64,000 nucleotides of DNA from Escherichia coli (GCF_002854065.1 NZ_CP024147.1), one strand, 5' to 3'. Positions 13,601 to 59,329 are shown, counted from the first letter of the stretch. Numbers and translations: made by a program. The notes: a model not told the origin generated them from the letters alone.

Positions 13601-14202
13601 AAAAGATCCTGACAACCCCGATCAAAGCTGAAGATCTGCAAGATATTCGCGTCGGCGATGTGATCTACCTGACCGGTACGCTGGTGACCTGCCGCGACGT
13701 TTGTCACCGCCGCTTGATCGAACTGAAACGTCCGATCCCTTACGATCTCAACGGCAAAGCGATTTTCCACGCTGGCCCCATCGTGCGCAAAAACGGCGAC
13801 AAATGGGAGATGGTCTCCGTCGGTCCGACAACCAGTATGCGTATGGAAAGTTTTGAACGTGAATTTATCGAGCAGACCGGCGTGAAACTGGTGGTCGGCA
13901 AAGGCGGAATGGGGCCGCTGACCGAAGAAGGCTGCCAGAAATTCAAGGCGCTACATGTGATTTTCCCGGCAGGCTGCGCGGTGCTGGCGGCAACCCAGGT
14001 AGAAGAGATTGAAGAAGTGCACTGGACAGAACTCGGGATGCCGGAGTCACTGTGGGTCTGCCGGGTCAAAGAGTTCGGCCCGCTGATTGTCTCTATTGAT
14101 ACCCACGGCAACAACCTGATAGCCGAAAACAAAAAGCTGTTCGCCGAACGCCGCGATCCCATCGTGGAAGAGATCTGCGAGCACGTCCATTACATCAAAT
14201 AA
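13597..14202 (+). CDS. ttdB: L(+)-tartrate dehydratase beta subunit
   Basis: 201 aa; 4-bp overlap with ttdA stop. Confidence 0.9.
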
Positions 14203-14249
14203 CCCTCCCGGAGAGGCTCGCCCCTCTCCTTTTTCGCAGGCATAACACG

Positions 14250-15713
14250 ATGAAACCTTCCACTGAATGGTGGCGATACCTTGCGCCGCTGGCGGTCATC
14301 GCCATTATTGCTCTAATTCCGGTTCCCGCAGGGCTGGAGAGTCATACCTGGCTCTACTTTGCCATTTTTACTGGCGTAATCGTTGGACTGATCCTCGAAC
14401 CCGTGCCGGGTGCCGTGGTGGCGATGGTGGGTATCTCCATCATCGCCATACTCTCTCCCTGGCTGCTGTTCAGCCCGGAGCAGCTCGCTCAGCCAGGCTT
14501 TAAATTCACTGCAAAATCCCTCTCGTGGGCCGTTTCCGGTTTTTCTAATTCGGTTATCTGGCTGATTTTCGCCGCCTTTATGTTTGGCACAGGCTATGAA
14601 AAAACCGGGCTGGGGCGACGTATCGCGCTGATTCTGGTGAAAAAGATGGGGCATCGCACGCTGTTTCTTGGCTATGCGGTGATGTTCTCCGAGCTGATCC
14701 TGGCACCTGTCACACCGTCCAACTCGGCGCGTGGTGCGGGGATTATCTATCCCATCATCCGTAACCTGCCGCCGCTCTATCAATCACAACCAAACGACAG
14801 CAGTTCGCGCAGTATTGGCTCGTACATCATGTGGATGGGGATTGTTGCCGACTGCGTGACCAGCGCCATTTTCCTGACGGCGATGGCTCCTAACTTGCTG
14901 TTAATTGGACTGATGAAAAGCGCATCTCACACCACGCTGAGTTGGGCCGACTGGTTCCTTGGGATGTTGCCGCTCAGTATTTTACTGGTCCTGCTGGTTC
15001 CCTGGCTGGCTTACGTGCTGTACCCGCCTGTACTGAAGTCAGGCGATCAGGTGCCGCGCTGGGCAGAGAAGGAACTGCAGGCAATGGGCCCGCTCTGTTC
15101 GCGTGAAAAACGGATGCTGGGGCTGATGGTAGGCGCGCTGGTGCTGTGGATTTTCGGCGGTGATTATATCGATGCCGCGATGGTCGGTTACAGCGTGGTG
15201 GCGCTGATGCTGCTTCTGCGCATTATCAGTTGGGACGATATTGTCAGTAATAAAGCGGCGTGGAACGTTTTCTTCTGGCTGGCCTCGCTTATCACCCTCG
15301 CGACCGGACTCAACAACACCGGTTTTATTAGCTGGTTTGGCAAACTGTTAGCAGGCAGCTTAAGCGGTTATTCGCCAACGATGGTGATGGTGGCGTTGAT
15401 TGTGGTGTTTTATCTACTGCGCTACTTTTTCGCCAGCGCCACGGCGTATACCTCCGCTCTCGCACCGATGATGATCGCCGCCGCGCTGGCGATGCCGGAA
15501 ATCCCGCTGCCGGTGTTCTGCCTGATGGTTGGCGCGGCAATTGGTCTGGGGAGCATTCTTACACCATACGCCACCGGACCCAGTCCGATTTACTACGGTA
15601 GTGGTTATCTGCCAACGGCGGATTACTGGCGACTGGGGGCGATTTTTGGGCTGATATTCCTCGTGTTGCTGGTGATTACCGGCTTACTGTGGATGCCCGT
15701 GGTGTTGCTTTAA
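14250..15713 (+). CDS. ttdT: L-tartrate/succinate antiporter
   Basis: 487 aa polytopic transporter downstream of ttdAB. Confidence 0.9.
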   Translation: MKPSTEWWRYLAPLAVIAIIALIPVPAGLESHTWLYFAIFTGVIVGLILEPVPGAVVAMVGISIIAILSPWLLFSPEQLAQPGFKFTAKSLSWAVSGFSNSVIWLIFAAFMFGTGYEKTGLGRRIALILVKKMGHRTLFLGYAVMFSELILAPVTPSNSARGAGIIYPIIRNLPPLYQSQPNDSSSRSIGSYIMWMGIVADCVTSAIFLTAMAPNLLLIGLMKSASHTTLSWADWFLGMLPLSILLVLLVPWLAYVLYPPVLKSGDQVPRWAEKELQAMGPLCSREKRMLGLMVGALVLWIFGGDYIDAAMVGYSVVALMLLLRIISWDDIVSNKAAWNVFFWLASLITLATGLNNTGFISWFGKLLAGSLSGYSPTMVMVALIVVFYLLRYFFASATAYTSALAPMMIAAALAMPEIPLPVFCLMVGAAIGLGSILTPYATGPSPIYYGSGYLPTADYWRLGAIFGLIFLVLLVITGLLWMPVVLL

Positions 15714-19272: not shown

Positions 19273-21114
<1,842 letters not shown>

Positions 21115-36973: not shown

Positions 36974-37085
36974 TGGAGCACCTCAAAAACACCATCATAC
37001 ACTAAATCAGTAAGTTGGCAGCATCACCCAGTTAAGCGTATTATTGGTGCAGAGCCCGGGCGTACCGGGCTCCGTTTTGAGGGGG

Positions 37086-43772: not shown

Positions 43773-43943
<171 letters not shown>

Positions 43944-43956
43944 TAGTGACTCCAAC

Positions 43957-44460
43957 TTACTGATAGTGTTTTATGTTCAGATAATGCCCGATGACCTTGT
44001 CATGCAGCTCCACCGATTTTGAGAACGACAGTGACTTCCGTCCCAGCCTTGCCAGATGTTGTCTCAGATTCAGGTTATGTCGCTCAATGCGCTGAGTGTA
44101 ACGCTTGCTGATAACGTGCAGCTTTCCCTTCAGGCGGGGTTCATACAGCGGCCAGCCATCCGTCATCCATACCACGACCTCAAAGGCCGACAGCAGGCTC
44201 AGAAGACGCTCCAGTGTGGCCAGAGTGCGTTCACCGAAGACGTGCGCCACAACCGTCCTCCGTATCCTGTCATACGCGTAAAACAGCCAGCGCTGACGTG
44301 ATTTAGCACCGACGTAGCCCCACTGTTCGTCCATTTCCGCGCAGACGATGACGTCACTGCCCGGCTGTATGCGCGAGGTTACCGACTGCGGCCTGAGTTT
44401 TTTAAATGGCGGAAAATCGTGTTGAGGCCAACGCCCATAATGCGGGCAGTTGCCCGGCAT
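43957..44460 (-). CDS. insB: IS1 InsB (copy 2)
   Basis: 167 aa. Confidence 0.85.
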
Positions 44461-44654
44461 CCAACGCCATTCATGGCCATATCAATGATTTTCTGGTGCG
44501 TACCGGGTTGAGAAGCGGTGTAAGTGAACTGCAGTTGCCATGTTTTACGGCAGTGAGAGCAGAGATAGCGCTGATGTCCGGCAGTGCTTTTGCCGTTACG
44601 TACCACCCCGTCAGTAGCTGAACAGGAGGGACAGCTGATAGAAACAGAAGCCAC
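44379..44654 (-). CDS. insA: IS1 InsA (copy 2)
   Basis: 91 aa, near-identical to copy 1. Confidence 0.9.
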
Positions 44655-44686
44655 TAGAGCACCTCAAAAACACCATCATACACTAA

Positions 44687-45571
<885 letters not shown>

Positions 45572-47191: not shown

Positions 47192-47296
47192 TTCTGTCGC
47201 CAGTTGTCGAACCCCTGTCGGGGCTTCTCATCCCCCCGGCATGTGCAACATACGAAAAAAAAGCCCGTACTTTCGTACGAGCTCTTCTTTAAATAT

Positions 47297-47310
47297 GGCG
47301 GTGAGGGGGA
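47297..47310 (-). other. 14-nt match to the 3' end of a tRNA-Ser gene (reverse complement), candidate att core
   Basis: tggcggtgaggggg equals the reverse complement of ...CCCCCTCACCGCCA as I recall the tRNA-Ser(GGA) 3' end; a short match, could be chance. Confidence 0.3.
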
Positions 47311-47469: not shown

Positions 47470-48678
47470 ATGGCAGTATTGACGGATACTAAAGCAAGGC
47501 ATATCAAACCTGATGACAAACCATTGCCCCATGGGGGAATTACAGGACTGACTCTTCATCCTTCTTCAGTAAAGGGGAGGGGTAAATGGGTTTTTCGTTA
47601 TGTAAGTCCGGTGACACAAAAAAGGCGTAATGCTGGATTGGGAACTTATCCTGAGGTCAGTATTGCTGAAGCTGCACGTACTGCCCGGATAATGCGAGAG
47701 CAACTTGCTGCAGGTGATGATCCTCTGGAGATTAAAAAGGCTGAAGCTGAAAAAGTTGTTATCCCAACATTTGCCGATGCAGCCCGGCGTGTACATGCAG
47801 AATTGTCACCGGGATGGGAAAACCCAAAGCATGTCAGGCAGTGGTTGTCGACGCTTGAAAATTACGTGTTTCCTCAACTGGGAGCAAAAACGCTGGATAC
47901 GATTACGGCTGCGGACGTGGCAGAGACACTGCGTCCAGTCTGGTTGACCTTATCAGAAACGGCAAGCCGGGTTAAACAGCGCATTCATGTTGTTATGCAG
48001 TGGGGCTGGGCGCATGGTTTTTGTGTGGCGAATCCTGTTGATGTGGTTGATCATTTGCTTCCACAGCAATCAAGAGGACGTGATGAACACCAGCCGGCAA
48101 TGCCCTGGAGGCAGTTACCGCTTTTTGTGGCGACCAGTGTGTATACAGATGAACCTTATAATGTTACCCGGGCACTGTTATTAATGGTGATACTGACAGC
48201 AACCCGCTCGGGCGAAGCAAGGGGAATGCGCTGGGCTGAAATTGATTTTCATAAGCGGATATGGACGATACCCGCAGAAAGAATGAAAGCCAGGATACAG
48301 CATCGTGTTCCTTTATCCCGACAGGCCATTCACGTTCTGGAAAATATACGTGGTCTGCATGACGAACTGGTGTTTCCTTCTCCCAGAAAGCAGCAGATCC
48401 TTTCAGATATGGTGTTGACGAGTTTTCTGCGTAAAAAGAAGGCCATCAGTGATATACCCGGACGAGTGGCTACAGCACATGGTTTTCGTTCAACATTCAG
48501 GGACTGGTGTAGCGAACAGGGATATTCGCGGGATTTGGCGGAAAGGGCGCTTGCCCATACGCTGAAAAATAAGGTTGAGGCGGCATATCACCGGACTGAT
48601 CTGCTGGATCAGCGTATACCGATGATGCAGGCATGGGCGGATTATGTGATGTCTCAGATTATGGAAAACCAGCGATGA
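47470..48678 (+). CDS. Tyrosine recombinase / integrase (internal to island)
   Basis: 402 aa; C-terminal catalytic region with HGFRSTFRDW and AYHRTD (R-H-R-Y type). Confidence 0.85.
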   Translation: MAVLTDTKARHIKPDDKPLPHGGITGLTLHPSSVKGRGKWVFRYVSPVTQKRRNAGLGTYPEVSIAEAARTARIMREQLAAGDDPLEIKKAEAEKVVIPTFADAARRVHAELSPGWENPKHVRQWLSTLENYVFPQLGAKTLDTITAADVAETLRPVWLTLSETASRVKQRIHVVMQWGWAHGFCVANPVDVVDHLLPQQSRGRDEHQPAMPWRQLPLFVATSVYTDEPYNVTRALLLMVILTATRSGEARGMRWAEIDFHKRIWTIPAERMKARIQHRVPLSRQAIHVLENIRGLHDELVFPSPRKQQILSDMVLTSFLRKKKAISDIPGRVATAHGFRSTFRDWCSEQGYSRDLAERALAHTLKNKVEAAYHRTDLLDQRIPMMQAWADYVMSQIMENQR

Positions 48679-48901: not shown

Positions 48902-49254
48902 TTAATTTTTTGTAGTTATGTTCCATATTTTAGTCTGTTCTTCATTTCTGTACTTATTCAGCTTATGGTCCCAACAGACTATAAACATTCCACGCTCCAT
49001 TATCGGGATGTTTGCCTCATTTGCTAATTCACAAGGTGTAATCGCGTCACCGATATAAATGATTTTTTGGCCGATTGAATAATCAATTACGATTTTTTTC
49101 TGTTCTGCAAGTATATCAAGTGCTTCATCAAGAACACATTTATTCCTGAGAGCATATGGACCATATTGCAGTATATGGCTTTTTTGATATTCGTATCCTT
49201 TTACCCGGATGATATTTTCTCTGAGCCATTTATCCAGTTTTTCTGCAGGAGATA
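48902..49254 (-). pseudogene. 5'-truncated gene remnant (about 117 C-terminal codons) ending at the IS903 boundary
   Basis: Open frame without a start: ...LSPAEKLDKWLRENIIRVKGYEYQKSHILQYGPYALRNKCVLDEALDILAEQKKIVIDY...NITTKN. Confidence 0.4.
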
Positions 49255-50311
49255 GGCTTTGTTGAATAAATCGAACTTTTGCTGAGTTGAAGGATCAGAT
49301 CACGCATCTTCCCGACAACGCAGACCGTTCCGTGGCAAAGCAAAAGTTCAAAATCACCAACTGGCCCACCTACAATAAAGCCCTCATCAACCGTGGCTCC
49401 ATAACTTTCTGGCTGGATGATGAAGCTATTCAGGCCTGGTATGAGTCAGCAACACCTTCTTCACGAGGCAGACCTCAGCGCTATTCTGACCTTGCCATCA
49501 CGACTGTGCTGGTCATTAAACGCGTATTCAGGCTGACCCTGCGCGCTGCGCAGGGCTTTATTGATTCCATTTTTTCTCTGATGAACGTTCCGCTACGCTG
49601 CCCGGATTACAGCTGTGTCAGCAGGCGGGCAAAGTCGGTTAATGTCAGTTTCAAAACGCCCACCCGGGGTGAAATCGCACACCTGGCAATTGATTCCACC
49701 GGGCTGAAGGTCTTCGGTGAAGGCGAGTGGAAAGTCAAAAAGCATGGCCAGGAACGCCGCCGTATCTGGCGTAAGCTGCATCTCGCCGTTGACAGTAAAA
49801 CACATGAAATCATCTGTGCAGACCTGTCGCTGAACAACGTTACGGACTCAGAGGCCTTCCCCGGGTTAATCCGGCAAACCCACCGGAAAATCAGGTCAGC
49901 CGCCGCCGATGGCGCTTACGATACCCGGCTATGTCACGATGAACTGCGGCGTAAGAAAATCAGCGCGCTTATCCCTCCCCGAAAAGGTGCGGGTTACTGG
50001 CCCGGTGAATATGCAGACCGTAACCGTGCAGTGGCTAATCAGCGAATGACCGGGAGTAATGCGCGGTGGAAATGGACAACAGATTACAACCGTCGCTCGA
50101 TAGCGGAAACGGCGATGTACCGGGTAAAACAGCTGTTCGGGGGGGCACTGACGCTGCGTGACTACGATGGTCAGGTTGCGGAGGCTATGGCCCTGGTACG
50201 AGCGCTGAACAAAATGACGAAAGCAGGTATGCCTGAAAGCGTGCGTATTGCCTGAAAACACAACCCGCTACGGGGGAGACTTACCCGAAATCTGATTTAT
50301 TCAACAAAGCC
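49255..50311 (+). mobile_element. IS903-group insertion sequence (IS5 family), 1057 bp, no target-site duplication
   Basis: 18-bp terminal inverted repeats ggctttgttgaataaatc / gatttattcaacaaagcc; flanks caggagata / actctgatc differ. Confidence 0.88.
49287..50255 (+). CDS. IS903-type DDE transposase
   Basis: 322 aa, ...TNWPTYNKALINRGSITFWLDDEAIQAWYE... Confidence 0.85.
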   Translation: MKDQITHLPDNADRSVAKQKFKITNWPTYNKALINRGSITFWLDDEAIQAWYESATPSSRGRPQRYSDLAITTVLVIKRVFRLTLRAAQGFIDSIFSLMNVPLRCPDYSCVSRRAKSVNVSFKTPTRGEIAHLAIDSTGLKVFGEGEWKVKKHGQERRRIWRKLHLAVDSKTHEIICADLSLNNVTDSEAFPGLIRQTHRKIRSAAADGAYDTRLCHDELRRKKISALIPPRKGAGYWPGEYADRNRAVANQRMTGSNARWKWTTDYNRRSIAETAMYRVKQLFGGALTLRDYDGQVAEAMALVRALNKMTKAGMPESVRIA

Positions 50312-50393
50312 ACTCTGATCGCAAAATTCGCTTTATGAACTACTTTAAAAACAAAGCGGTATGTGTTAAACATAATAAAGGACTAAATTTAAT

Positions 50394-50816
50394 TTGTATT
50401 TATCATTATATAAAGGTGATCTAATGATAGCAAAGGGTTATAAGCTCCCTCATGAATTTCCTCATGAATCCTTTATACAAGAAGTTCTTGAAGATTTTTT
50501 TGAAAGCGAAGGATATTCTATAATCGAAGAAAAACCGATAGATGTAAAATGTTCAAATGCAGACAAGAATGAAACTTGGATTATTGAAGTGAAGGGGAAA
50601 ACATCACAGATTGGGCTAGATTTCAAGACATGTTTAGGTCAGATTGTAATGCGAATGAATAATCCTGATTATATATATGCTATCGCTATGCCCGATATAG
50701 AACAGTACCACAAACAGGTAAACAAAGTGTCATCTAAAATTGCTGCCAAAATTAATTTAAACTGGATTTTTGTCAGCGACAAGGGAACTATTGAAATAAT
50801 TCGTAACTGTGATTAG
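50394..50816 (+). CDS. Hypothetical protein, 140 aa (possible PD-(D/E)xK nuclease-like motif)
   Basis: Isolated ORF between IS903 and IS3; segment PIDVK...ETWIIEVKGK resembles a D...E-x-K core; weak. Confidence 0.4.
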   Translation: MYLSLYKGDLMIAKGYKLPHEFPHESFIQEVLEDFFESEGYSIIEEKPIDVKCSNADKNETWIIEVKGKTSQIGLDFKTCLGQIVMRMNNPDYIYAIAMPDIEQYHKQVNKVSSKIAAKINLNWIFVSDKGTIEIIRNCD

Positions 50817-51091
50817 ACTCATCGTATTCTCTCGACACTCACCACTCTTTTTATTCGGAATAGGTGAGTGCCATACATTATATTTTTAAAAGTAGATAAC
50901 ATGTCGTTCATATCGACTTATAATTGATTTATTCATATGTAAGACATATACCTCCGTGTTTCCTTTCAGAGCAACTGGATGATAAATGATATCGCTGTTT
51001 TCTCGACTAACCCGATAGGATGCGGTATCTGAGCAATACACACTCAACACCCCACTTGAACTGATCCTACCCACGTAATATGGACACAGGC

Positions 51092-51958
51092 CTAAGCGAG
51101 GTTCTTGTTTTCAAATTGTTCCGGACTGAGGCCGCCACACCAACTGTGCCGCCGCCACCGATTGTAATCACATTCGATATAATTAAACACCGTTGCCCGC
51201 ATTATTTCCCGGCTGATAAAGTGTTCTCCATGGATACATTCCACTTTCAGCGAATGAAAGAAGCTTTCCACGCAGGCATTATCGTAGCAGCAACCTTTTG
51301 CGCTCATACTTCCACGCAGATTATGCCGCTTCAGTTGCGCCTGATAATCTGCTGAACAGTACTGGCCTCCACGGTCCGTGTGAACGATAACGTTCCGGGG
51401 CCTCTTACGCCGCCACAGCGCCATCTGCAGGGCATCGCAGGCCAGTTGCGCCGTCATGCGTGGCGACATTGACCAGCCAATAACGGCACGTGACCACAGG
51501 TCAATGACCACTGCCAGATACAGCCAGCCTTCATCTGTACGTAAGTACGTGATGTCTCCTGCCCACTTCTGGTTCGGGCCACTGGCGTAAAAATCCTGCT
51601 CCAACAGATTTTCTGACACAGGCAGGCCGTGTGCGCGGTAGCTGACCGGGCTGAACTTCCGGGAGGCCTTTGCCCTCAGTCCCTGACGGCGCAGGCTTGC
51701 CGCCACGGTTTTTACGTTAAAGGGGTAACCCTGAGCACGCAGTTCATCCGTCAGGCGTGGGGCACCGTAACGCTGTTTTGACCGGGTAAAAGCCGCGAGG
51801 ACAACGCTGTCGCAGTGTTGGCGGAACTGCTGACGCGTGCTTATCCTTGTCCGCCGCTGACACCACGTATACCAGCCGCTGCGGGCCACCCGGAGCACGC
51901 GGCACATTGCTTTGATGCTGAACTCAGCCTGATGTTTTTCAATAAAGACATACTTCAT
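51092..51958 (-). CDS. insF: IS3 OrfB (InsF), DDE transposase
   Basis: 288 aa [38 protein letters not shown]. Confidence 0.88.
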
Positions 51959-52254
51959 TTCAGGCGCTTCGCGAAGTATGTCGCGGCCTTTTGGAGGATA
52001 GCCAGCTCTTCATCCCGTTCTGCCAGCTGGCGTTTGAGACGTGCAATCTCGGTAGACATCTCCAGTTCACGTTCAGAAGACGTCTGCTGATTTTGCTGTT
52101 TACTGCGCCAGTTGTAGAGCTGTGATTCATACAGGCTGAGTTCACGGGCTGCGGCAGTAACACCGATGCGTTCAGCAAGCTTCAGGGCTTCACTGCGAAA
52201 TTCAGGCGAATGCTGTTTACGGGGTTTTTTACTGGTTGATACTGTTTTTGTCAT
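51955..52254 (-). CDS. insE: IS3 OrfA (InsE)
   Basis: [53 protein letters not shown]. Confidence 0.88.
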
Positions 52255-52319
52255 GTGAGTCACCTCTGACTGAGAGTTTACTCACTTAGCCGCGTGTCCA
52301 CTATTGCTGGGTAAGATCA

Positions 52320-52676
52320 AACAACCGCCAGCGCCTGATTGATGATTTTCAGGCTCAGCCTGGGTTTGGGGTGATTATTCTCTCTACGGTTGCTGTCGGG
52401 TTTGGCGTTAACGTCCAGAAAGCCAATCATGTGATTCATTTTACTCGCTGCTGGAATCCAGCCAAAGAAGATCAGGCTACGGATCGGGCGTATCGCATTG
52501 GGCAAACTAAAGATGTGTATGTCTATTACCCAACTGTGAGAGATACTGAAATCACAACATTTGAAGAAACTCTGGATAACCTCCTACAACGCCGACGAGC
52601 ATTGGCCAGAGATATGCTCTGCGCTACTCCCGATTTGAACTGTGGGGATTTTGAGACCATTTTGAAGGGAGCCTAA
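52320..52676 (+). pseudogene. C-terminal fragment of an SNF2/superfamily-2 helicase, split by IS3 and lacking its N-terminal domains
   Basis: ...IDDFQAQPGFGVIILSTVAVGFGVNVQKANHVIHFTRCWNPAKEDQATDRAYRIGQTKDVYVY (helicase motifs V-VI); in-frame upstream continuation across the IS3 duplication hits a stop at 51008. Confidence 0.6.
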
Positions 52677-53237
52677 CCGATATGAGCGGCAATACTACCA
52701 GTTGCCAAACCTGAAATAACACTTAGCTGTGATGATTCGCTATTACCTATCGATAGCTTCGGAAAACATAAATTAAAAATGCCCAGAGGAGTACTATTAT
52801 CGTTAGCATTACCCGAACGCCGTATTAACGGTTATTTATTGGTAAGTGCTACGTTCCATGGCAAGAGTTCATCAACAGGTTGGAAGGCCATTCCGGCAAA
52901 ACTCTCAGTATATGGCGCAGATACCATTCAGACAGCAGGTCCCGCTCAGCCCGTACAGTAGAGCGCCGTTCACTACCGTAATCGCTACCGAAGAACACAT
53001 TGATTGCCCCTCAATAATCCTGCTGTTAACATCAAAATTGTTGGTCGGGCTCGATTTATTTAATTGTGTAAACAGGGTCTCTCAGAGAAAGGCCCTTATG
53101 CATCACCTGACGTTAAAAGTCACTACACCCAAGATGACGTTCAAAGTGTCATAGTCCCCTGCGCTGAGGACAAAGCCACACGTTAACAACAAATCCACGC
53201 GATAACTTACGATGGTTCGGGCATAAGCCCCCATAAT

Positions 53238-53801
53238 TCAGTTATGTCGTGGTCGGCCGCGGTTACTTTTTTCGGGAAGCCTGCTACGGCCCAGAATAAT
53301 ACCGTGTTCTTTCTGATCCTGTTTAGCCAGGTAGCTGAGGGCGTAACGTAAGTCGTCTACCGCAGACTTATCACTATAGTGAATCACGTGATCGATACGC
53401 ACCGGGTATTTATCTTTAGCCCGGCACAGGTGAAAATAACCATCCCCTTCCGTGATCCGCCTCCAGATATCTCCCAGTTGCCTGGATATCTGATAAGAGT
53501 TCTTATGACGTTGCCCATCTAGGTAACCGATAAAATGAATATGAAGTCCCTTGTTTTGTGTATATTCCATTACCCAGTAATATCCCGCCAACATCGATTG
53601 GGTTTCGCTAAGTAAACGGTATATTTCCATACACATACTGTGCTTACAGGAATGCCCGAAACTGGGCGTGTCTTTCCTGTAGGCAAAATCAATTCTGAAA
53701 GGTAACAGTTTAGAAAAACGTTGAAACATACCGTCCATGTGTTCATTCACATCTTTCAGAATCGCGAAATTCATTTCGTAATTGGGATTGGCATTATACA
53801 T
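53238..53801 (-). CDS. YagK/YfjJ-family protein (inovirus Gp2-like, putative replication initiation)
   Basis: 187 aa, MYNANPNYEMNFAILKDVNEHMDGMFQRFSKLLPFRIDFAYRKD; family from memory. Confidence 0.55.
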   Translation of the reverse strand: MYNANPNYEMNFAILKDVNEHMDGMFQRFSKLLPFRIDFAYRKDTPSFGHSCKHSMCMEIYRLLSETQSMLAGYYWVMEYTQNKGLHIHFIGYLDGQRHKNSYQISRQLGDIWRRITEGDGYFHLCRAKDKYPVRIDHVIHYSDKSAVDDLRYALSYLAKQDQKEHGIILGRSRLPEKSNRGRPRHN

Positions 53802-54676
53802 TTTATAGTCCTTACTTTATAAAACTCACAGGAAGGTGGAATTACATAAATACTGAGAGTACAGAAACGCCGTACCACTGCATTAATAAACTGGGTAACC
53901 AGTATGCAGACAACCTGATAAAACTGTTTCTTATTACCTCATTACAGTAATGGGGGTAATACTTCAGAATACAGTGAGGCTCTCTTAAACAGAGGACCAG
54001 TAAGAATTACAATGGTAAAAACATACCCCATAGAATTAACTTTAAGGAAACACCATTCAATCACTTAAAGGAAGTAATCTGACATTCACAAAAGTCAGTA
54101 TCGGGTAGCTACAGGCAACACCGCTATTGATACTCCCGCACCATTAAGTAAAAACATCAACTCAGCTTAAGGCCTCTACAGATATTTAATCTCCACCATA
54201 AACAATAACGGAGCTATAACGTACGAACCAGACACACATTCAATGATTAACTTTCTCAATATTACACTATGAGAAAGTGACATAATTTAACATATAACTA
54301 AACAACATACACTACTCACTGATGTATATACATCACATACCTACAGACTAAGCAGAATGGTCAGCATAAAGAGGAGCGACAATACGATAAAAAGAGATAA
54401 AACAATATAACAGATCACATAACTCCCACTAATAATACTAATTAACCTAAATTATTTATTGAACACGAGAACAATGAGGGAACCTCCTCATCTAGGACTA
54501 AAGCCAGCAATATCCTGAGCAACACTCTATCCAATAGTAAATAATGGTTATACCAGTTATATTTGCTGACTGACCTGTACCAGAGTTCTGTAATACAACA
54601 ACGCTGACATGGTAAAGGCATTAGTCTCCTCCGCAAGTAGCAGAGGAGACTATATGTTACTCAACGATTAAGTCGT

Positions 54677-56110
54677 TCAGAGGTCAAAGTTAGGTGCGAC
54701 ATACCACGTTTTTCCCTCAATAACCGGTACAACTCTGTTTTGTTCATACAGTAAATCCAGTAACCAATTGATTTTATCCTTTTTCCGGAAACGGTTCGGA
54801 CCACGCTGTAAAATGTCATTTTTTTTCATACAGGGGATCCCCTTCTCAATGCAATAGCTTTTTATCCAGTTAAAAAGTTCAAGCTCCTCTGGAATGAGTC
54901 GCACAGGTACGGTCAGGGCAGAGTTTTCAAACGTTAACGGACTGGATAACCGAACATACTCATTACCATACCATATTGCTAATTCTCTCGCCATTTCAGC
55001 AGTGTAGGGGGAAATGTCACCTTCCTCACCGCTAAAATGGTGAATAAGTCCTGCCAGTCTTGCCATATACTCTGCATTTTTAGCAGCATATTCTCTGAAG
55101 TCTCTTAAAGGCCCCAGAACCGACATCTTCGATTCCACATCGTTGTAATAGTCCGTCCAGATTCTGGCTGCCTGAGGAGAAAAGTGAAGGCAACGCCGCT
55201 CTCCCCTCATCGCCAGGCTTTCATCAATGAGTTCATTTATCCTCTGTTCAAACAAATCCTGATACTGTGATGAATAATTATCTCCTGTTATTATCCTTGT
55301 CCCCTGCGTTGATGTTGGTTGACACATCAAAAACCTTGCATGATGTCCCGACGTTTTCACAAGTTCTTTTTTTCGTGTACAAAAACCTTTGTGGTAAACA
55401 TCAGGCTGAACCATCACCGATATCGTCAGTCTTGGTTCCTTCAAAAAAATTCCGGGAGATGATTTCCTGTCGATGAAAAGAGAACCACCATCCCACAAAG
55501 AGTTAAGTATTCCCAGTTTACTCATTGCCCGGCTGTCAAAAATTATCCCACCTTCACTGGATACAAGAGCAAAAGAGCGATTGCTATCAGAATAATATTT
55601 TAACATTCCCTCTATCGTTGTATCATTAAAAATTGTTCGATGTATCTGTGGTGGAACAGGACACTTATTCAGATGTGTTTTAAGCTCTGATTCTGTTGTC
55701 TTATAATCTTTACCGGCACGAATCTCTTTATGAAGTTTTGACTCCAGTGCTTTTTGTTTTTGCTCCCATATTTCCTTTTCTGTACTGTAATTCTCAACCA
55801 GTTTCGCGTATTCTTCCGCCAGGGCTTCATCCCTGAGATAAAATGCTTTCATAAACACTTTATCCACGGTCGTTTTCCTTTCACCAGAATCAGCCAGAAT
55901 CATAGAGTAAATATTAGAGGACCCACGTAAATTTCCTGGCCTGCACACATCAACCTGATTCTGACAGGCAATTGACATCGCTGTTAATGCTGCAGTTATC
56001 GCCATAGCTATAGGTGTCTGTGTATTCTTTTGAGTTTCAATTATTGCATTTCTCGCCAGCGGTGGCATTGCATATATCGGACAAGGATTTTCTGGTGCAA
56101 GTAAGCACAT
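54677..56110 (-). CDS. YfjI-like DUF3987 protein (putative primase/replication protein of P4/PICI-like elements)
   Basis: Start chosen at MCLLAPENPCPIY by alignment with the duplicated 5' fragment; family from memory. Confidence 0.55.
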   Translation of the reverse strand: MCLLAPENPCPIYAMPPLARNAIIETQKNTQTPIAMAITAALTAMSIACQNQVDVCRPGNLRGSSNIYSMILADSGERKTTVDKVFMKAFYLRDEALAEEYAKLVENYSTEKEIWEQKQKALESKLHKEIRAGKDYKTTESELKTHLNKCPVPPQIHRTIFNDTTIEGMLKYYSDSNRSFALVSSEGGIIFDSRAMSKLGILNSLWDGGSLFIDRKSSPGIFLKEPRLTISVMVQPDVYHKGFCTRKKELVKTSGHHARFLMCQPTSTQGTRIITGDNYSSQYQDLFEQRINELIDESLAMRGERRCLHFSPQAARIWTDYYNDVESKMSVLGPLRDFREYAAKNAEYMARLAGLIHHFSGEEGDISPYTAEMARELAIWYGNEYVRLSSPLTFENSALTVPVRLIPEELELFNWIKSYCIEKGIPCMKKNDILQRGPNRFRKKDKINWLLDLLYEQNRVVPVIEGKTWYVAPNFDL

Positions 56111-56358
56111 AAATGCCTCTCTTTTCATTAATGGGTTAGTAAAGTAGCAGCAACTCCCGCTATAATAGCGAAAATAGCTGCTGTTCAGACCTAATGTTCT
56201 GAAAAATACAGAATATCTGTAGATCTGATGTTTAATAACCGATAAGGTTAATTCAGTTCAGACTGTGTTATTTACCACGAAATATCATTCATGTTTCTCA
56301 TTCTTAACACCTCCTAAAATTATTTCACTAACACCTTCCCCCCGGTCTTTTTCCTTTC

Positions 56359-56586
56359 TCAGGAATCAGCCAGAACCATAGTGTAAATATTAACGGGCCC
56401 ACGTAAATTTCCGGAGCTGCACACGTCAATCTGATTCTGACAGGCAATTGACATCGCTGTTAATAATGATGTTGTAGTCATAGCCAGAGATGCTTTTTCA
56501 TTTTGTTGAGTTTCAATTATTGCATTTCCAGTCATTGATGGTTGCGCATATACTGGATACGGAGTATCCGGTTTGATGTAAGACAT
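56359..56586 (-). pseudogene. Duplicated 5' fragment (75 codons) of the YfjI-like gene
   Basis: MSYIKPDTPYPVYAQPSMTGNAIIETQQNEKASLAMTTTSLLTAMSIACQNQIDVC... parallels the N-terminus of the 54677-56110 gene; part of a ~330-bp segmental duplication. Confidence 0.5.
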
Positions 56587-56691
56587 AAATATTCCCTTTT
56601 TTCGTAATGACTTTCGGTTATAGCAGCTATTTCCGCTACAATAGCAACAATAGCTGCTATACAGACTGGATATACTGAAAATACAAACAGT

Positions 56692-56940
56692 TCATCTGGT
56701 CTGTATCCAGCAGAGAAGGTCACTTAACAACCATCCGCAAGATTTCTTTCCGATAGACTTACGTGGTGGAAATTTTCCCTCCCGTTCAAGTTTCCACGCT
56801 TGCGTACGAGAAACTGACGTGATCTCATATCGTTCCTTTTCACGTACCAGTCTGTCGCATTCAATCCCATAAGCTTTCAAAATGACCAGACGCTGTTCAT
56901 CTGTTAATGGAAGCCACATACTACCCTCCTGATATATCAA
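56692..56940 (-). CDS. alpA: AlpA-family phage/island transcriptional regulator (winged-helix DNA-binding)
   Basis: C-terminal ...ITSVSRTQAWKLEREGKFPPRKSIGKKSCGWLLSDLLCWIQTR resembles AlpA/Vis; true start may be the internal Met at 56919. Confidence 0.65.
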   Translation of the reverse strand: MIYQEGSMWLPLTDEQRLVILKAYGIECDRLVREKERYEITSVSRTQAWKLEREGKFPPRKSIGKKSCGWLLSDLLCWIQTR

Positions 56941-57611
56941 TACTTTTTATTTCCGGCATGAGCATGAAATGACTAAGTTTCCCGGATAAACAATGAGTGA
57001 AAGTCACTGTCATTCATCCAGCCAACACCTTGCAAATAAAATGTAATACTATGATTTTTATAGGTCAAAATACTGAATTACAATGTTAAAATGGCTTTTA
57101 ATAGAAAAAATAAAGACATATAGAGCCAAATAAAAATAAACTACGACAAATAAAAACAAAAGATTAATATTAAAAATCCATTATGACGATTTTTATTGAC
57201 TAAAATCAGGTTGGGATATATAAATAAATCCATGTAAAATTCAAACAAGGCATGGAGGAGTCGCAGGAAGGTGAAATATTTCCATCTAATTTGTGATAAT
57301 CATCACAAAAATAAGCTACAACAAGCGGAGGAAAAGACAATCTGTTGCTGAACAGACAGAAGCAGGCTACGAATGATCGGAAAATGAAGCAAATACGCTT
57401 ATACAGAAGACGCAGGGGTAACTGACGGAGACAATCACAATCAGGAGAAAATGATCGTAAATAATGTATAAAATCTCAGGATATAAACAAATGTACACAA
57501 GCTATCCACGTAATCTGCGGCTGGCTCAGGATTAACGTTTCATTTCAGTGGACGACATCGATTCTGTCTGACAGTGGGCCAATATGTGGCAAGCAGAAAA
57601 CTTCTGACATC

Positions 57612-59243
57612 ATGGTAACTCGGACAATGCAACAAAAGTATGATCGTGTTTTATCTGGCGAATCCCATCCATTCCCTGGCATATACGAGGCGGTTTCCGA
57701 ACAACTCCTTTTGCTCATCTTTAAGGCTCGTCAGCTATATCAGAATCCAGAATATCGCCCCTGGTTTGAAGAACAGCACAGAGTTCTCTCTGCATTACGT
57801 GCTAATACAGAGCTCTTGAGAATATTTAGAGAACAAAGAAACGCGGAAGAACCAGAGCTTATTATTAAAGAATCTACATTACCCCTACTCACTAATTCTA
57901 ATCTTACAGATGCGCTTAATATTATGTGCCATTTATACAATGGTTTTGATGAAGGAAATATCAGTCTGAAAACCTGGGGGGCGATGCAAGAGGTACAGAC
58001 AACATCAACCTTTATCAGCCCGGGACCGAGAACCTGGAAAACACCTGAACTGGCAAAGTTTGTAGGAGATGATTTATTTAATATTCTGACTGAATGTAAA
58101 GCCTGGAGTTCACCAATTCCAGCAGAAACCCGACAGGGCTATTGCCATCAGGATCTGTCTGTTGCACACTCCTGCACCTCAGAGTTACTGGCACACCTGA
58201 ATCAATACCATGAAATTGATGAATCAGCAATACTTGCCAGAGTTATTGGTATGACGGTTAACGGATTCTACAAGAAAAATAATACAGACCTCCCAGAATG
58301 GCTATCCCCCTTTAAAGAGGAACATAAAATATTCAGAGATTGTCTGGAGCAAAAGACCGAGGATGTAATCAGACTGAAAGAACAACTGTTGAAAACAGGA
58401 CGTTCAGAATTCGTGAATAATTTGTGTCGGGTCGCCAACTGGTATGAAATTAAGTCAATATACGATGAATATGTCCGTCTTTATGCCAATGAAATCATTG
58501 GTTGGTTCAACAAAACCATGGAATATTTTAAACCAACAGATTTTATCCGATATACATGGAAATTCGCAACAGTTACTCCAGGTAAAGAGACAGAAACCAA
58601 GCATACAACTGCATGGGAAAAGGATTATTGCCAGATAACTATACAACGTGATGAACTTCTGAGATTGATTCACACGAATACCCTTCAGGATGCAGTAATT
58701 TATCTTTGCCATTGTCTGCAGAAGAAATACAAGAAATCATCCCAAAATGAGATAGAGTTTCCAGGAATAAAACCTCCGGCATCAGAGAGTGAAATTAATA
58801 TAACAGATAGTTTTGAATTTTATTCTCTCCTGGAGCTCAGTAAAGATAATGAGAGACGGCTGGAAACATTTCAAAAATGGTATGAAAAAAATAAAGTTTT
58901 GTTAGAAAGTCATAAACAAAAACGAACAGAGAAGATTGACGTTGCCGTACGACTTGTAGGGCTGAAAGCCTATGATCTGCATGAAGGGATTCCGGATAGT
59001 CCAAAACGAAAAGTTAAAGATGGCATAAATGAAGACATCAAAGCCGATACCAGTTTACGCCTGCCAAAGACAAATATAAGTGATACGTCGCTAAACCGTT
59101 ATCGCCGCACTGTTAAGGAGATTATCAATAACGAAATCGACGCATTCCTGTTGGAACAGAAGAAAAAAAATAAAAGATTTCCCTACAGTGAAGATAGAGA
59201 TGTGATTCGACCTTTATGGGGAAAATGCCTGACCGGGCAGTAG
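57612..59243 (+). CDS. Hypothetical protein, 543 aa, no recognisable domain (candidate novel cargo gene A)
   Basis: Long uninterrupted ORF in lower-GC DNA between alpA and the terminal integrase; I could not match any motif (no Walker A, no obvious nuclease or polymerase signature). Confidence 0.6.
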   Translation: MVTRTMQQKYDRVLSGESHPFPGIYEAVSEQLLLLIFKARQLYQNPEYRPWFEEQHRVLSALRANTELLRIFREQRNAEEPELIIKESTLPLLTNSNLTDALNIMCHLYNGFDEGNISLKTWGAMQEVQTTSTFISPGPRTWKTPELAKFVGDDLFNILTECKAWSSPIPAETRQGYCHQDLSVAHSCTSELLAHLNQYHEIDESAILARVIGMTVNGFYKKNNTDLPEWLSPFKEEHKIFRDCLEQKTEDVIRLKEQLLKTGRSEFVNNLCRVANWYEIKSIYDEYVRLYANEIIGWFNKTMEYFKPTDFIRYTWKFATVTPGKETETKHTTAWEKDYCQITIQRDELLRLIHTNTLQDAVIYLCHCLQKKYKKSSQNEIEFPGIKPPASESEINITDSFEFYSLLELSKDNERRLETFQKWYEKNKVLLESHKQKRTEKIDVAVRLVGLKAYDLHEGIPDSPKRKVKDGINEDIKADTSLRLPKTNISDTSLNRYRRTVKEIINNEIDAFLLEQKKKNKRFPYSEDRDVIRPLWGKCLTGQ

Positions 59244-59329
59244 ATCACTGAGGGGATAACAGCCCGGTTATCCCCTGTTTGTTCTGCTTCAGGTTGCCAG
59301 AGCTCTAGGAACACGAGGCAATCGGCAAA

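Follow-up and report, generated by a model that had tools for sequence, protein, structure and literature searches.

A 3′ remnant of the type I Zorya gene zorD abutting an IS3 element in an Escherichia coli genomic island

Introduction

How did the last part of a helicase gene come to lie directly against an IS3 element in an E. coli genome, and from which gene was it cut? The question arises from the window, by which we mean the whole 64,000-nucleotide stretch of E. coli DNA that was analysed. An earlier note on this DNA had described positions 51008-52676 as the end of a large helicase gene, possibly a relic of a degraded defence or repair system, which would have lost its 5′ portion before it received an IS3 insertion. 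The features on which the question turns are these:

48902-49254, minus strand: tail of a DUF3987/YfjI-family gene, its C-terminal 117 codons, cut by IS903
49255-50311, plus strand: IS903 (IS5 family), 1057 bp, with inverted repeats and an IS5-family transposase (5e-107)
50312-51061, plus strand: foreign 750-bp segment with an intact 130-aa ORF at 50424-50816; not Zorya
51059-51061, no strand: AAC left of IS3, equal to the AAC at 52320-52322 (zorD codon 963) and resembling a 3-bp target duplication
51062-52319, minus strand: complete IS3, 1258 bp, with inverted-repeat ends; orfA at 51955-52263, orfB at 51092-51958
52320-52676, plus strand: 3′ remnant of zorD, a pseudogene made up of ZorD codons 963-1080 plus the stop codon, with motifs V-VI followed by the C-terminal tail
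52677-53144, no strand: spacer that natively follows zorD and contains the decayed fragment of an IS66-family transposase; in synteny with islands where Zorya is intact

The reading that we consider very probable is that the helicase fragment is a non-functional stub of zorD, and that IS3 is the break point at which two unrelated DNAs appear to have been joined through recombination or deletion at IS3, not the product of a simple insertion into a truncated gene.

Results and Discussion

Identity of the helicase fragment

To the right of IS3, the plus strand of 52320-52676 encodes motifs V and VI of the C-terminal RecA-like lobe of SF2/SNF2 helicases, and both STVAVGFGVNVQ and QATDRAYRIGQ can be read directly from the sequence. 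The coding part comprises 118 codons (52320-52673) and is followed by a stop codon at 52674-52676. Pfam Helicase_C matches it at 1.4e-11 over model positions 53-110 of 110, which is the second half of the domain only, while the PADLOC ZorD model PDLC00632 matches at 6e-72 over profile positions 976-1095 of 1101. When we compared the stub with the PDB entries 8QY7 and 8QYC, the apo and ATP-gamma-S forms of EcZorD (Hu et al., Nature 2024, PMC11946911, Data availability), we found that residues 963-1080 of 1080 align with it end to end (E = 2e-74), with 4 differences in 118 residues. Residues 963-1080 of ZorD from the genome GN02350 likewise map to 52320-52673 by tblastn, at 98.3% identity. The NCBIfam equivalog for the type I Zorya anti-phage system protein ZorD (NF041790) matches over positions 963-1035 of 1035, its last 73, at 1.9e-49; its score of 168 bits falls far under the 1500-bit cutoff because the stub is truncated. 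Compared as DNA, the stub and the annotated zorD genes of many complete E. coli genomes are 97-99.7% identical.

The helicase match is far beyond chance, and 52320-52676 is the 3′ end of zorD, whose product is the effector of type I Zorya (ZorABCD), an SNF2-type ATPase/nuclease; sequence identity and zorABC synteny in intact relatives both identify the fragment as an orthologue of ZorD. The C-terminal SNF2 motifs described in the earlier note are thus borne out by the agreement of the Pfam Helicase_C, PADLOC ZorD and PDB 8QY7 matches. Its suspicion of a large SNF2-type anti-phage helicase can be made specific as well, since the search against defence-system helicases that it proposed returned ZorD in PADLOC, NCBIfam and the PDB, and in intact relatives this ZorD stands beside zorABC, not among housekeeping or IS-associated helicases.

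Another SNF2 defence helicase could in principle have left such a fragment, namely DpdE of the 7-deazaguanine Dpd system, DrmD of DISARM or BrxH. Indeed, the top PADLOC match is by a small margin the DpdE model PDLC02854 (1.4e-74, against 6.1e-72 for ZorD), and PADLOC also gives weaker matches to DrmD and BrxH. However, the zorD genes to which the stub DNA is 97-99.7% identical sit directly after zorA-zorB-zorC, the stub protein is 98% identical to EcZorD, whose structure has been characterised by experiment, NCBIfam places its ZorD equivalog far ahead of all others (1.9e-49 against 4.7e-07 for DrmD), and there are no dpd, drm or brx genes nearby. In the annotation tables of intact relatives we found no dpd cluster context, the neighbours there being zorABC. 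The DpdE model, which was built from very similar sequences, scores about as well as the ZorD model and therefore does not discriminate between the two. We rejected the DpdE identity on the zorABC synteny and the near-identity to EcZorD, and an origin in any of the three other systems has, in our view, next to no chance of being correct.

The stub is an ordinary pseudogene, from a known gene family and with a known kind of decay, which standard annotation already flags: PGAP labels the identical stub in the genomes YZ22MPE6 and CUWW10 as 'helicase-related protein, incomplete, missing N-terminus'.

The island and its intact relative

The DNA to the right of the stub belongs to an island whose backbone comprises the following features:

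53238-61372, minus strand: backbone of the former Zorya island, delimited by collinearity with CUWW10 and GN02350 and by the integrase domain match; it also holds two hypothetical genes
53238-53801, minus strand: Gp2/YagK-like gene
54677-56128, minus strand: YfjI
56692-56940, minus strand: AlpA-like gene
60056-61372, minus strand: tyrosine integrase, identified by a domain match, adjoining nfeF

In GN02350 the corresponding island reads zorA1-zorB1-zorC-zorD, IS66 remnant, YagK/YfjJ and Gp2-like genes, island genes including an HTH regulator, tyrosine integrase and nfeF-nfeR-aer. The right side of the window presents the same series: stub, IS66 remnant, Gp2/YagK-like gene, YfjI, AlpA-like gene, two hypotheticals, integrase, nfeF and nfeR. 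Window positions 52319-53144, from zorD codon 963 through the spacer, match GN02350 (positions 14000-14829 of the sequence compared) at 96.9%, and the annotation of the IS66 spacer is consistent in GN02350, YZ22MPE6 and CUWW10. The intact-Zorya island of GN02350 is collinear with window 57922-64000 at 91%, and CUWW10 is collinear with 51062-61615 at 98% identity. The shared gene series, together with the 96.9% match of the spacer, indicates that the nfeF-side island once carried Zorya I, and a look into related genomes of the kind suggested by the earlier note did reveal an intact locus, zorABCD at the syntenic position next to nfeF in GN02350. In related islands this place is taken, at roughly the same position, by McrBC in EC1515 and by a TOTE fragment in LHM10-1, which marks it as a slot for variable cargo.

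Within this backbone we also observed a 75-codon duplicate of the YfjI/DUF3987 N-terminus on the minus strand at 56359-56586, with about 76% DNA identity to 55839-56212. It lies just upstream of the full gene, and related islands carry a partial DUF3987 pseudogene annotation.

IS3 and its flanks

The IS3 of the window differs from the K-12 IS3D by a single nucleotide, and both of its ORFs match the NCBIfam equivalog transpos_IS3 (3e-101). Its length, its terminal inverted repeats and its two ORFs agree with the hallmarks of IS3, among which is a programmed frameshift of orfA/orfB. Its orfA-proximal end, conventionally IRL, abuts zorD′ and forms the truncation boundary.

As the earlier note had observed, AAC stands immediately outside both ends of this full-length IS3, at 51059-51061 and at 52320-52322. 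When IS3 and one AAC are removed, a 134-codon open frame follows the TAA at 51008-51010, so that the joined frame of some 132 codons described in that note does exist as an open frame. It is no real gene, however, since its first 17 codons (PDRMRYLSNTHSTPHLN), to the left of IS3, do not come from zorD. Intact zorD reads ...CCAAAAC|AACCGCC across the break, also given as ...AGTCAAAGCCAAAAC|AACCGCCAG, which makes the window's AACAACCGCC zorD throughout. Both tblastn and blastn place the beginning of the zorD homology at 52319/52320, exactly at the IS3 end. In strain 74-2, where the left flank is uninterrupted, it runs ...CCCCACTTGAAC and then TTCCTCCTTTC..., which is not zorD either. Because the left flank is unrelated DNA, the 17 'upstream codons' are an accident of joining, and we rejected the longer helicase frame read across IS3, its left 17 codons being unrelated to ZorD. 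Since the zorD homology starts at the IS3 end, the helicase remnant is 52320-52676 and not 51008-52676.

The parents of the two flanks differ, and the flanks re-assort among genomes. The AAC/AAC 'duplication' is probably coincidental, judging from the origin of the flanks in two parent sequences and from the re-assortment of the junction halves elsewhere. If the IS3 is a hybrid, the match must be due either to chance, at 1 in 64, or to a preference for certain targets. An apparent 3-bp 'target duplication' of this sort can mislead into rebuilding a gene across an IS that in fact joins unrelated DNA.

IS3 junctions in other genomes and the order of events

Each half of the window's junction was found with other partners:

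YZ22MPE6, IS3-zorD′ junction: partner across IS3 is the kpsF capsule region (...CAGAGAAAG)
CUWW10, IS3-zorD′ junction: partner is the dgcT end (...AAAGCGGCATTT), identical to the left flank of the K-12 IS3D
ET565, junction of the 130-aa ORF segment with IS3: partner is window position ~52883; the zorD stub is gone
EC1515, junction of the 130-aa ORF segment with IS3: partner is the interior of IS903B, followed by McrBC

The IS3-zorD′ junction occurs in exactly two complete genomes, YZ22MPE6 and CUWW10, while the window's own pairing of IS3 flanks occurs in none of the 5426 complete E. coli genomes. The parental junction of zorD-5′ with IS3 was present in none of the 5426 E. coli genomes and in no metagenome contig, and the reciprocal IS3/AACTTCCTCC junction in no genome; with neither reciprocal junction found, we infer two independent parental insertions that were not themselves observed. 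An IS3-free fusion (CCCCACTTGAAC-AACCGCCAGCGCC; 30-mer CCCCACTTGAACAACCGCCAGCGCC) was likewise shown by no genome. The six IS3 copies that we compared have 1-3 SNPs per copy, which is too few to detect a mosaic or recombinant IS.

Since the homology to both parents ends at the IS3 ends and the junction halves re-assort, we conclude that IS3 itself is the break point; a simple insertion of IS3 into a gene truncated beforehand would not account for the junction. The order of events proposed in the earlier note, loss of the 5′ portion and then IS3, could not be maintained: the truncation point is the IS3 end, the flanks are of different DNA, and the junctions recur in CUWW10, YZ22MPE6, ET565 and EC1515. 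Spelled out, that history would have zorD lose its 5′ part and fuse to the 130-aa ORF segment, after which IS3 transposed onto the fusion and left a true AAC duplication. The AAC on both sides of a complete IS3 would be explained in this way, a parental simple insertion has been found for neither half, and a window-like ancestor could in principle yield all the other arrangements by IS3 recombination. However, both parental homologies stop exactly at the IS3 ends, so that IS3 must have landed on the very 3 bp of a prior unrelated fusion, which is a much less likely coincidence. Neither the IS3-free fusion nor, among the 5426 complete genomes, the flank pairing of the window occurs elsewhere, whereas the halves occur with other partners. 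We regard this history as quite improbable.

In the reading that we prefer, with IS3 as the break point, the nfeF-side island once carried zorABCD as cargo, as the GN02350 island still does, and an IS3-associated event removed zorABC and zorD codons 1-962 from the locus. IS3 now joins unrelated DNAs, the small mobile segment with the 130-aa ORF on one side and zorD′ on the other. Two copies of IS3 probably recombined by homology or deleted the DNA between them, unless the junction goes back to an IS3-associated deletion; new insertions followed by an IS3-IS3 deletion would give the same re-assortment pattern. As to the exact pathway, IS3-IS3 recombination or deletion is likely.

The segment to the left of IS3

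Of the 5426 complete E. coli genomes, only 11 have the foreign 750-bp segment. A stretch of an Enterobacter cloacae plasmid is 99.3% identical to it, and in most genomes that have it the segment is bounded by IS elements. Its ORF has an ATG at 50424 and encodes 130 aa, or 140 aa if read from a TTG at 50394. In its native contexts, an ICE-like island and a plasmid, the gene is flanked by an acyltransferase gene, with a Csu-type fimbrial operon at a greater distance in the opposite direction. The earlier note had taken this 140-aa ORF for a possible fragment of the same decayed locus. It is instead an intact gene with neighbours of its own, and it showed no PADLOC, NCBIfam or PHROG match and no similarity to ZorA-D.

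In 74-2 and EC1515 the product is annotated as the hypothetical protein WP_000560765.1. Its family comprises 10 clusters, all in Enterobacteriaceae, and has a conserved PID...EVK motif. Sequence searches against PDB and Pfam gave insignificant matches only, so that a fold search was needed to place the protein. The AlphaFold (AF2) model has a pLDDT of 87, and its best PDB matches in Foldseek are the XisH proteins 2inb and 2okf, followed by AF2093, splicing endonucleases and YaeQ, neighbours (XisH included) that we take to be PD-(D/E)xK-type folds. The ORF resembles the XisH family in size and in its PD-(D/E)xK-type fold (Foldseek E = 1.5e-5 for 2inb and 1.5e-4 for 2okf, TM of about 0.6). However, it shares only about 17% identity with that family, has no Pfam XisH match, and has no XisI partner in the ORF list. 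We suggest, with considerable doubt, that this rare, unannotated, Enterobacteriaceae-restricted protein could act as a minimal stand-alone nuclease in mobile-element conflict or excision control.

IS903 and the left-hand island

The IS903 at 49255-50311 has no 9-bp target duplication, its flanks being CAGGAGATA and ACTCTGATC, which suggests that it is a second rearrangement junction, formed by adjacent deletion or recombination. Genomes with 99.8% identity annotate the product of the gene that it cuts, 48902-49254, as a DUF3987 domain protein, and in LHM10-1 the DUF3987 gene continues for about 260 bp further before its IS903B. This tail belongs to a second, left-hand island, whose integrase (47470-48678) lies next to dgcT. 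We found no PADLOC, NCBIfam or PHROG match for the fragment and none to ZorA-D. The truncated gene that the earlier note had also linked to the helicase locus is accordingly a DUF3987/YfjI backbone gene of another island.

In the interval between dgcT and the left integrase, positions 47196-47309 hold a unit annotated as 'RtT sRNA' in related genomes, with one copy in LHM10-1 and four in tandem in YZ22MPE6 (at 20396-21075 of the sequence compared). No tRNA gene was detected in this interval, and the 'RtT sRNA' region may be the attachment-site region of the left integrase.

Loss of the Zorya system

When we searched the 64-kb window with the GN02350 ZorA-D proteins by tblastn, the single match was that of ZorD 963-1080 to 52320-52673; there was no 5′ zorD, and ZorA (at E <= 0.01), ZorB and ZorC had no match anywhere in the window. 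Of the components of a type I Zorya system, the window contains neither zorA (MotA-like, with a long tail) nor zorB (MotB-like) nor zorC (EH-motif DNA-binding), and of a full-length ZorD of about 1080 aa, with its N-terminal domain and an SNF2 ATPase with a DEAQ box, it retains residues 963-1080 only. Gone from this locus are therefore zorA, zorB, zorC and 89% of zorD, though a displaced zorABC with the 5′ part of zorD may lie elsewhere in the genome. Nothing of ZorD upstream of residue 963 is present, and the N-terminal RecA-like lobe (Walker A, DExx and motifs I-III) is absent. The activity of ZorD needs its ATP site, with Glu651 and the DEAQ box at 730-733, its nuclease-active C-terminal domain extends over 503-1080, and neither ZorC nor ZorD alone gives protection without ZorAB (PMC11946911). 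Residues 651 and 730-733 all fall upstream of residue 963, and neither the autoinhibitory domain at the N-terminus nor the native start codon is left in the stub.

The stub contains a GTG-initiated ORF of 101 codons (52371-52676), and a promoter scan found no plus-strand sigma-70-like site between the IS3 end and this ORF. Because the ATP-binding and DEAQ motifs are missing and no promoter is evident, the stub is, on its sequence, almost certainly non-functional and gives no Zorya defence; we also infer that it is not expressed. Could the stub nevertheless have been retained because it is expressed, for instance as the 101-aa GTG ORF read out from IS3, and serves some leftover or newly gained function, for example interference with Zorya proteins? 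The 101-codon open frame exists, and three genomes still have the same stub at 99.8% identity, yet the near-identity of these three fits a recent origin rather than selection. No promoter-like site lies upstream on the plus strand, the fragment is less than half a RecA-like lobe and has no ATP-binding motif at all, PGAP calls it a pseudogene, and ET565 has lost the stub outright via the same IS3 without replacement. We find such a role very hard to credit.

Rearrangements in the wider window

A second defence gene of the window has been hit by an IS, at 34290-37028. There the ORF of the type I restriction-modification gene hsdR, which encodes 683 aa and covers positions 2-606 of 674 in TIGR00348, continues into an IS1 at 36261-37028 that abuts pgaD, and hsdM (31416-32972) and hsdS (32969-34168) look intact. 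The IS1-pgaD junction also occurs with other left partners, an alpha-amylase pseudogene in LHM10-1 and a GMC oxidoreductase pseudogene in CUWW10. Another IS1, 95% identical to the first, lies between pgaA and dgcT at 43942-44709.

The distance between ileX (tRNA-Met CAT according to ARAGORN) and nfeF, which is 54 bp in K-12, is about 39.8 kb here (window 21824-61669). This gap holds an Ag43/type I restriction-modification island, the pgaABCD-dgcT block and two facing integrase islands. The pgaABCD-dgcT block lies at 1.09 Mb in K-12, and core genes were moved into the ileX-nfeF gap by IS-mediated translocation or inversions.

Comparison with known systems

Type I Zorya no longer exists at this site in the strain, and the zorD stub is not something that automated defence-system finders should report as a system. 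The locus provides an example of how IS3 copies shuffle and erode the cargo of defence islands in E. coli.

Compared with ZorD of EcZorI (8QY7/8QYC, PMC11946911), residues 963-1080 of the stub are nearly identical, but the window keeps 11% of the protein and lacks the N-terminal domain (1-502), ATPase lobe 1, Glu651 and DEAQ 730-733. Set against a type I Zorya system as a whole it has no zorA, zorB or zorC, and is a pseudogene rather than a system. The island backbone and the DNA that follows zorD are the same as in the genomes that carry intact zorABCD. The PGAP pseudogenes of YZ22MPE6 and CUWW10 have the same IS3-zorD′ junction and the same stub, at 99.8% identity, whereas the far side of IS3 differs, theirs being the kps capsule locus or dgcT and that of the window the 130-aa ORF segment. 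Finally, the flanks of the K-12 IS3D, next to dgcT/ycdT, are likewise unmatched (TTT against GTG), while the two flanks in the window happen to share AAC and so mimic a clean insertion.
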